Part shown: one piece after another, positions 38,520 to 39,346 of the stretch
How the letters are laid out: each line of letters starts with the position of its first letter
Position numbering within the stretch: the stretch's first letter is position 1
From: Escherichia phage LLS
Sequence record: PQ299149
Direction: 5' to 3' (one strand)
Length of the DNA stretch: 42,883 nucleotides
Translations under genes and position numbers: made by a program
Notes under the pieces: generated by a model
Databases searched by the model: none
What the model was told of the DNA's origin: nothing
What the model saw: only the letters and a program-made list of their open reading frames with translations

Positions 38520-38614
38520 GGTAACTTTCACTAACTCCATCAATTAGGCTTGCAAAATGCAACAAAATGAGCGATATTTGATTCTAATTTGATACGTTGC
38601 CAAAGTTATAATGA

Positions 38615-38635
38615 CCCGCTGTGTGGCGGGTTTTT
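38615..38635 (+). terminator. tR'-like intrinsic terminator downstream of Q
   Basis: CCCGC-TGTGTG-GCGGG followed by TTTTT; preceded by TGCAAAATGCAA, a motif also present in the lambda 6S RNA region. Confidence 0.6.
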
Positions 38636-38668
38636 GTTATGATAGTCCGTCAAAAAAAGGGGGCTATA

Positions 38669-39273
38669 TGTGGCAAGGTATACCATTTAAATTCATGCAC
38701 AGTGATTTACTGGAGTCTTCTAATTTAATTATTAAAAAAATTCCTCATATTTTTGTCGAAACATCGCCAGATTATATTGGGGCATTAGCTACTGCTACCG
38801 GAACTTTGGTTGCCGGTTGTTTATCTGCTTTCGTAGCTTGGTATGCTATTAAAGCTAACAGAAAACAAATGCTGCAACAGCAGATGATAATCGATAAGCA
38901 AACATTCACTAATGAACTAAGAACCAGAATGTCTACGTTTCTAGCTGATGTGGAAAAATTGTCATTAATGCTAAAGCCAGATATTTATGGGCGTAAGCTA
39001 TCGATGTCTAATATGAATTACGAAAGCAGGGTGAGCCTTGATAAAGTGGCGTATGACCTTGATTTGTCTCGTTATCATTTATTGCTAATGATTGATGAGA
39101 AATCACAGTTTGCTAAAATGAGAAATCTTATCGATAAGATTACTGAAGATATAGGGTTGTCGGTAAGAAATGTCGAATATTACGATACTGATGATGTTAT
39201 CAAGGAGCTAATTAAAGCAACTGTAAGTTGTATTGATTCAGAATGGAAGTTAGTGACCAAACTAACGAAATAA
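38669..39273 (+). CDS. AT-rich membrane-anchored hypothetical protein (late-region moron)
   Basis: ATG at 38669 with AGGGGG RBS; single predicted TM helix IGALATATGTLVAGCLSAFVAWYAI; much lower GC than flanking genes; no family recognised. Confidence 0.55.
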
Positions 39274-39314
39274 TAAACACTCCTCAACCATGAGGTGTTC
39301 TTGCTGTGAAATGG

Positions 39315-39346
39315 GCGGCTGGTGGGTGTTGTCGCACCCAACCAGC
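39315..39346 (+). other. Long GC-rich stem-loop downstream of the moron
   Basis: GGCTGGTGGGTG-TTGTCG-CACCCAACCAGCC, 12-bp stem with one bulge, no U tract. Confidence 0.35.

Follow-up and report, generated by a model that had tools for sequence, protein, structure and literature searches.

Prophage morons are a main source of phage resistance and host traits, and the slot between the antiterminator gene Q and the holin gene is the one in which Shiga toxin genes are carried. Here, we analyzed this slot in Escherichia phage LLS (sequence record PQ299149; 42,883 nucleotides [nt], this whole stretch being referred to as the window), where the first gene behind a terminator resembling lambda tR' codes for a membrane protein of 201 amino acids (aa). 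The window represents a complete lambda-like genome, with head and tail genes 95-96% identical to those of coliphages Flotzy, Eeyore, mEp043, and mEp213. The closest described systems are as follows: (i) the T4 genes e, soc, 49, and I-TevI, of which long transcripts are silent and those initiated within the hairpin, where a promoter lies, are translated (PMC3014915); (ii) the phi80 defence gene Tai, situated in the Q operon, with constitutive expression in the lysogen that falls when Q is produced (PMC11364771); and (iii) morons in late operons, of which some that protect the lysogen, such as Tab, are documented (PMC10884400), together with the gene 15 moron of HK97 (Juhala et al. 2000 and Cumby et al. 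2012, as cited in PMC10884400).

The LLS locus resembles the T4 e type in that the Shine-Dalgarno (SD) sequence would be sequestered in read-through RNA and a promoter-like element lies in or next to the DNA for the 5' arm of the sequestering hairpin, an arrangement found in 17/17 loci compared. In contrast to T4, where the inner promoter is late and the silenced RNA early, the candidate inner promoter here is sigma-70-like and the RNA predicted to be silenced is late; moreover, the hairpins at loci of the protein family concerned (PHROG 18859) are weaker than those of T4, and the gating here is a predicted one. As regards expression as proposed below, the locus is like phi80 Tai/Ati, with a gene in the late operon that would be on in the lysogen and down under Q-driven transcription. 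However, Tai is divergently oriented, in a noncontiguous operon, and is paired with an anti-defence gene, whereas the LLS gene is co-directional and single, and codes for a membrane protein that is not known to resemble Tai in sequence. Likeness to HK97 gene 15 extends to an extra gene between usually adjacent genes, deviant composition, a promoter-like element, and, at some loci, an own terminator, as well as to a small inner-membrane product with one transmembrane (TM) helix and a helical tail. HK97 gp15 has 62 aa and is encoded among tail genes, whereas PHROG 18859 proteins are 200-290 aa long, combine a conserved N-tail with a four-helix bundle, and are always encoded between Q and the holin; the two show no relationship in sequence (hhalign probability 0.4%).

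Our preferred reading, which we consider possible and put forward tentatively, is that positions 38635-39295 form a self-contained membrane-protein moron cassette behind the tR'-like terminator, which would be expressed by the prophage, have its late translation damped, and act against other phages. More specifically, an extended -10 promoter of its own (TGTTATGAT) would give rise to RNA from near 38650 that could be made in the lysogen, with the terminator insulating the cassette from constitutive pR'. Own-promoter RNA would lack the anti-SD arm of the leader hairpin and thus be translatable, whereas Q-antiterminated read-through RNA would carry that arm and be translated less. At the inner membrane, the protein might act against other phages, speculatively by superinfection exclusion or abortive infection, and its low dose during the phage's own lytic growth would leave the membrane undisturbed and the pinholin not triggered early. 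By analogy with the morons above, a defence role would be plausible.

The upstream signals carry most of this argument, and we assessed them in 17 distinct family loci (individual loci being designated by L numbers); an exhaustive profile search had given 74 representatives, and 65 sequences were aligned. A -10-like TAnnnT hexamer was found 22-26 nt 5' of the ATG in 17/17 distinct loci, and the extended form TGnTAnnnT, located at -35 to -21, in 13/17 of them versus 5/103 controls, i.e., SD-bearing starts of other genes at these loci. The extended -10 persists in L014, where no terminator precedes the gene, and in viral contig L031 (1722-3467), in which the methyltransferase gene stands before the family gene, the reverse of the order in the window, and both the TGTTATGAT element and the SD hairpin still precede the gene. 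It is absent from sister prophages with other cargo. The comparative evidence thus favours the cassette having its own promoter.

The anti-SD arm of the leader hairpin begins 1-2 nt past the -10 hexamer; both this arm and the hexamer are new observations that go beyond the initial annotation of this DNA. We found that the minimum-energy fold of the leader is an SD-pairing hairpin in 17/17 loci, with energies from -4.3 to -11.8 kcal/mol. When a fixed 24-nt window was folded, the hairpin passed in 10/11 lineage representatives versus 13/78 control gene starts. Consistently, the arms co-vary among loci (AGUCC/GGGCU, CCUCC/GGAGG, AACUCCUU/AAGGAGUU, and UUUCCUU/AAGGAAA). Since MAFFT alignment of the leaders left the hairpin arms out of register, pairing was judged by per-locus folds and controls, not by a formal pair count over the alignment; support for the hairpin as a conserved element comes from comparison across loci. 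Transcripts made by sigma-70 polymerase normally start ~7 nt after the -10 hexamer, and a start at that distance would leave own-promoter RNA without most or all of the 5' arm, whereas read-through RNA from pR' would carry it, which suggests that translation from late read-through RNA is damped. The initial annotation had left two options, i.e., an own promoter in a lysogen-expressed moron or, under Q antitermination, high-level synthesis late in infection; the conserved TGnTAnnnT favours the former, and the SD hairpin in read-through RNA makes the latter doubtful.

The setting of these signals is a late control unit, made up of a Q gene and, between it and the late genes, an intrinsic terminator. 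The Q-like gene noted upstream was recovered as a member of PF06323, the Q82 family of antiterminators (PMC9388147). The late promoter pR' most likely sits at 38550-38578, in the intergenic region 30 nt past the Q stop codon, and need not overlap the 3' end of Q as had been presumed. We place it there because the block from TTGCAA (38550) to the terminator is kept in all Q82-type loci seen and because L004, which has a lambda-type Q, offers a lambda-like analogue at the matching position, namely, TTGCAA-N17-TAGCAT, then AACGATGGG, the pause element of lambda pR', with a short terminator next. The candidate hexamers agree with the consensus at 8/12 positions and were unlisted by the promoter scan. 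By likeness to lambda pR', TAATTT at 38585-38590 could serve as a pause element; the TAATTT region and the -10 block form a repeat (GATATTTGA / TAATTTGA), and CATATTTGA occurs twice in L008, L009, and L011. At L004 (5880-5960), we also observed that the terminator follows the pR' with AACGATGGG by ~30 nt, which would give a terminated RNA of ~53 nt compared with 194 nt in lambda.

The LLS unit is like lambda pR'-6S RNA-tR' in its succession of Q, intergenic promoter, -10-like element at the transcript start, intrinsic terminator, and late genes, and in sharing the 12-mer TGCAAAATGCAA. It is unlike lambda in that Q is of the Q82 family, the terminated RNA from candidate pR' would be ~50 nt versus 194 nt, and TGCAAAATGCAA lies in the -35/spacer region as opposed to ~+124 in lambda. 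Sharing of this motif with the lambda 6S RNA region, pointed out in the initial annotation, is real. The 12-mer is a direct repeat overlapping the -35 hexamer and spacer, occurs as a single copy in the window (38551-38562), and is present in every Q82-type locus seen; its exact match lies in lambda NC_001416 at 44711-44722 (L032 912-923), just 5' of tR', and was found in 0/200 shuffles of the lambda stretch. This conserved 12-mer might serve as a binding element for Q, or it may be a remnant of mosaicism.

The hairpin with U tract proposed in the tR' position was likewise borne out by folding: RNA from 38606-38642 folds at -15 kcal/mol (z -4.0), 0/200 shuffles fold as well, and the region holds 4 terminator-like sites versus 0.8 expected from shuffles. 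A hairpin and T tract occupy the equivalent place in 12/13 loci with a TGn-type upstream region, and also in relatives with other cargo, with stem sequences differing. A TATAAT at 38607, which had already been discounted as the late promoter, was rejected as a promoter altogether; it belongs to the A-rich 5' flank of the terminator, pairs with the flank past the T tract, and reads TATAAG, TTTAAT, or TTATAA in relatives. The terminator tail TTTTTTTATGCC is common to unrelated junctions, i.e., L001 ~3215-3240 (CX21 tR'), L014 ~6700-6730 (after the family gene), and L017 ~5900-5925 (before the family gene), and may be a recombination joint for cassette exchange.

The 201-aa open reading frame (ORF) itself stands as annotated except for its start, which is 38668 and not 38669, since the frame from 38669 has 21 stop codons. 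An ATG at 38611, located within the terminator and lacking conservation, was rejected as start codon, and homologues all start MWQG. The gene was rightly described as AT-rich, having a G+C content (GC) of 0.348 and a third-position GC (GC3) of 0.322 relative to 0.515 for the window and 0.51-0.54 for flanking genes, which places it among the two most AT-rich stretches of the window. In the E. coli prophages CX21 and ECONIH5, Q, the terminator region, and the methyltransferase leader are 91-94% identical to those of the window, and other cargo lies between them; alternative cargo in the slot of sister prophages is a 63-aa gene or a 159-aa minus-strand gene. Two hallmarks of a moron, i.e., presence/absence between otherwise adjacent genes and deviant base composition, are thus found at this locus. 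For the cargo genes of the sister prophages and the neighbours in L014, neither Pfam nor PADLOC gave an identity from which the slot could be recognised as a defence hotspot.

A 100% identical copy of the protein was returned at one locus, in Enterobacter sp. RIT637, by a genome collection search with close alignment. Close relatives form ten clusters at 90% identity, which are 46-100% identical, have 200 or 201 aa (one being called with a 15-aa upstream extension), and all start MWQG; the dN/dS (nonsynonymous-to-synonymous rate) ratio of the ORF is 0.13-0.19. The ORF is a real accessory gene under purifying selection, foreign in composition. That it is a decaying or functionless hitch-hiker is very improbable: lack of a known domain and the rarity of the family (those 10 clusters among close relatives) would fit such an origin, whereas the dN/dS ratio, a length held at 200-201 aa down to 46% identity, four invariant residues (given below), a confident structural model, and conserved regulatory signals all speak against it.

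The initial annotation described one TM helix with a helical remainder, and the protein indeed has a single hydrophobic segment and an AlphaFold2 (AF2) model, built on the 65-sequence alignment, with a predicted local distance difference test (pLDDT) score of 87. In this model, residues 1-35 are irregular, a long helix (residues 36-102) includes the TM segment (about residues 37-60; nt 38776-38847), and three further helices complete a four-helix bundle (61-200). The lysine/arginine count is higher after the TM segment than before it in 61/65 members and the N-tail (1-35) is acidic, the topology being predicted as N-out, C-in, i.e., with a periplasmic N-tail and a cytoplasmic bundle. W2, G4, P6, and P26 are invariant in the 65 sequences, and the best-conserved elements are the N-terminus M-W-x-G-x-P-F, P26, the TM motif AGxIPAxIAW, N64, R85, and E192-W193. 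The TM helix is rich in small residues, and the cytoplasmic bundle is variable, being ~80 residues longer in long members. In combination with the variable cytoplasmic domain, the conserved TM helix and N-tail are what might be expected of a membrane effector whose sensor is diversifying, and are in line with a defence role.

Unlike chemoreceptor and histidine kinase four-helix sensors (Tar, TorS, QseE; 4HB_MCP), the protein has no second TM helix, output domain, or profile match, and its bundle is predicted to be cytoplasmic; the likeness is one of generic fold only. A further explanation, which we judge unlikely, is that the product is a lysogenic-conversion membrane protein unrelated to defence, e.g., one that modulates a transporter, a sensor, or an envelope stress response, and the slot merely tolerates insertions. 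Moron architecture, foreign composition, and the unrelated cargo in the slot of relatives would all be expected in that case. On the other hand, the bundle is predicted to be cytoplasmic and not periplasmic, no host-function family was matched, and damped translation in late RNA would be left without a reason.

The protein matches the phrog_18859 hidden Markov model (HMM) with E 2.2e-20, as do 65/65 aligned relatives (best E 5.4e-44), and this PHROG has no assigned function. The exhaustive profile search, run among 1.84 billion proteins, yielded its representatives at E<=1e-3, with lengths of 190-290 aa; the named members come from Enterobacter, Citrobacter, Klebsiella oxytoca, Pantoea, Pectobacterium, and Erwinia. 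We detected no Pfam or NCBIfam match for the protein or its 65 relatives, no match to the protein by tblastn in 50,697 phage records, no relative of it in BFVD, and only coiled-coil noise when the family profile was compared with PDB sequences. In every context read, the family gene stands between Q and holin, in lambdoid prophages of Enterobacterales. More specifically, it follows a Q82-type Q in the window, L003, L005, L008, L009, L011-13, and L014, a Q-lambda-type Q in L004, L017, and L029, a Q21-type Q in L027, and an unclassified gene in the Q position in L019 and L028. The holins 3' of it belong to at least four families (P21-type, holin_3_1, holin_8, and others), and a methyltransferase gene is often, not always, nearby.

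Such a strict Q-to-holin position favours late expression as the purpose of the gene, the main rival to our preferred reading, though one we judge rather unlikely. The gene would then be a true late gene, with its protein made mainly from the Q-antiterminated transcript and acting in lytic growth, where it could affect lysis timing or membrane state before the holin, or block superinfection or progeny re-adsorption; the -10-like element would then be either incidental or a site of sigma-dependent pausing, with the hairpin doing no more than keeping translation at a moderate level. Consistent with late expression, the gene is co-directional with the late operon, begins 31 nt past the terminator, is not closed by a strong terminator in the window, and keeps its position, in some loci with the holin immediately 3' of it, down to 23% identity and irrespective of Q type (three known families) or holin type (at least four families). 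However, sister phages that share the lysis cassette do without the gene, that cassette is complete without it, the family is neither tied to one holin type nor matched to a holin or lysis family, and the conserved SD occlusion and extended -10 would be left unexplained.

With holin, endolysin, and spanin all supplied by the complete lysis cassette, none of these functions has to be provided by the 201-aa protein. The view of the initial annotation that the first gene after the terminator is a foreign accessory gene and not the holin held up, with no lysis-family match and other cargo present in sister prophages, and the homology search that it called for identified no known holin, antiholin, or lysis regulator. 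We rejected these three roles on the lack of any Pfam, NCBIfam, or annotated PHROG match and on the absence of the gene from sister phages; an antiholin role is further disfavoured because the family occurs together with more than one type of holin. A spanin was rejected as Rz/Rz1 are present elsewhere, and a class III holin as there is no profile match and the predicted topology is opposite.

Several observations weigh against a prophage-expressed defence cassette. First, the 4/17 loci outside the extended -10 count have TATGTT in its place, without canonical TGn, and the candidate cassette promoter has no -35 element and was unlisted by the promoter scan. Second, the window's own leader hairpin is a weak one (-5.7 kcal/mol, z -0.6), and the extent of any damping may be correspondingly small. 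Third, PADLOC-DB v2 gave no defence identity, only noise in the form of PDC-M17B (E 0.0065, over the TM region) and weak PtuB matches (6e-5) in 8/65 sequences, and fold searches returned only generic four-helix bundles. Finally, the constancy of the Q-to-holin position down to 23% identity could instead indicate that the gene is there to be expressed late. We regard as unlikely the bolder proposal that PHROG 18859 constitutes a new anti-phage system, acting by exclusion or abortive infection, that resides in the Q-to-holin slot and consists of one gene with an inner-membrane product; self-harm would be avoided in it by a co-directional own-promoter/anti-SD silencing device.

Features of the locus are collected in Table 1. 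Downstream of the ORF, the family gene is followed by strong intrinsic terminators in L014 and L017, at the place equivalent to the small hairpin in the window. The long stem-loop reported next was confirmed as a structure, and its assignment was revised: it is part of the methyltransferase module and not of the 201-aa gene. It forms the left end of a non-coding leader (39300-39439) that is near-identical in all methyltransferase-linked loci whatever the upstream cargo; its two stems are nearly constant, with occasional G-C to G-U changes, free variation being confined to a 1x2 internal loop and the sequence of the loop. A scan of 38300-39600 against Rfam gave no match near threshold. The gene behind this leader is an orphan methyltransferase gene, as the initial annotation had it.

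Table 1. Coordinates of features around the 201-aa gene in the LLS window
Feature	Coordinates	Strand	Details
DUF968 gene	36744-37805		Start of the gene order around the 201-aa ORF
Q antiterminator gene, Q82 family	37827-38519	+	PF06323, E 3e-41; 35% identical to phage 82 Q
Candidate late promoter pR'	38550-38578	+	TTGCAA (38550-38555), 17-nt spacer, GATATT (38573-38578)
TAATTT, -10-like, candidate sigma-dependent pause element	38585-38590	+	About +1 to +6 of the predicted late transcript
tR'-like intrinsic terminator	38613-38637	+	Stem 38613-38632, then T tract, tail TTTGTTATGA
Extended -10 promoter-like element TGTTATGAT	38635-38643	+	TGnTAnnnT; overlaps end of terminator T tract
5' leader hairpin	38644-38665	+	Anti-SD AGTCC (38644-38648) pairs with GGGCT (38661-38665), covering SD GGGGG (38659-38663)
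Predicted 201-aa bitopic inner-membrane protein, PHROG 18859	38668-39273	+	SD GGGGG 5 nt upstream
Small hairpin after stop codon, weak terminator at best	39282-39295	+	-7 kcal/mol, z -1.75, T-poor tail
Strong stem-loop without U tract	39317-39347	+	-24.1 kcal/mol, z -4.4; left end of ~130-nt methyltransferase leader
Orphan N6/N4 DNA methyltransferase	39440-40492	+	PF01555, E 8e-43; no adjoining restriction enzyme, holin next
Complete lysis cassette	40563-41826	+	P21-type holin 40563-40778 (PF04971); lysozyme 40775-41314 (PF00959)
Rz-like gene with embedded lipoprotein ORF	within 40563-41826	+	Embedded ORF 41576-41722; from ORF list

Further genes were noted elsewhere in the window. On the minus strand, 26525-27385 is the most AT-rich stretch of the window (GC ~0.33) and carries a 286-aa ORF that adjoins the integrase gene (27382-28557) and has no Pfam or PADLOC match; this ORF is probably a second moron. 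Also on the minus strand, a 178-aa Peptidase_M78/ImmA-like protein (24296-24832), with a PADLOC capP-type match (E 8e-15) and RmrA matches, is encoded near a Bro-N protein (25544-26305), and a 190-aa Rv2179c-like 3'-5' exoribonuclease (28759-29331; PF16473, E 1e-72) lies in the early left region. Past Rz, 41827-42772 comprises an AT-rich gap (GC 0.34) and a 214-aa ORF (42128-42772; GC 0.43) without a Pfam or PADLOC match. In lambda, bor is found at this position, so this stretch may represent another accessory cassette.

For the biology of temperate phages, this uncharacterised membrane family of the Q-to-holin slot offers a concrete candidate for an exclusion or abortive-infection protein. 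If real, the layout in which a promoter stands beside an anti-SD arm would provide a simple and general route by which a gene within a late operon may be expressed in the lysogen and yet muted in lytic growth, and such a layout would be relevant to the question of how prophages escape damage by the defence genes that they carry.
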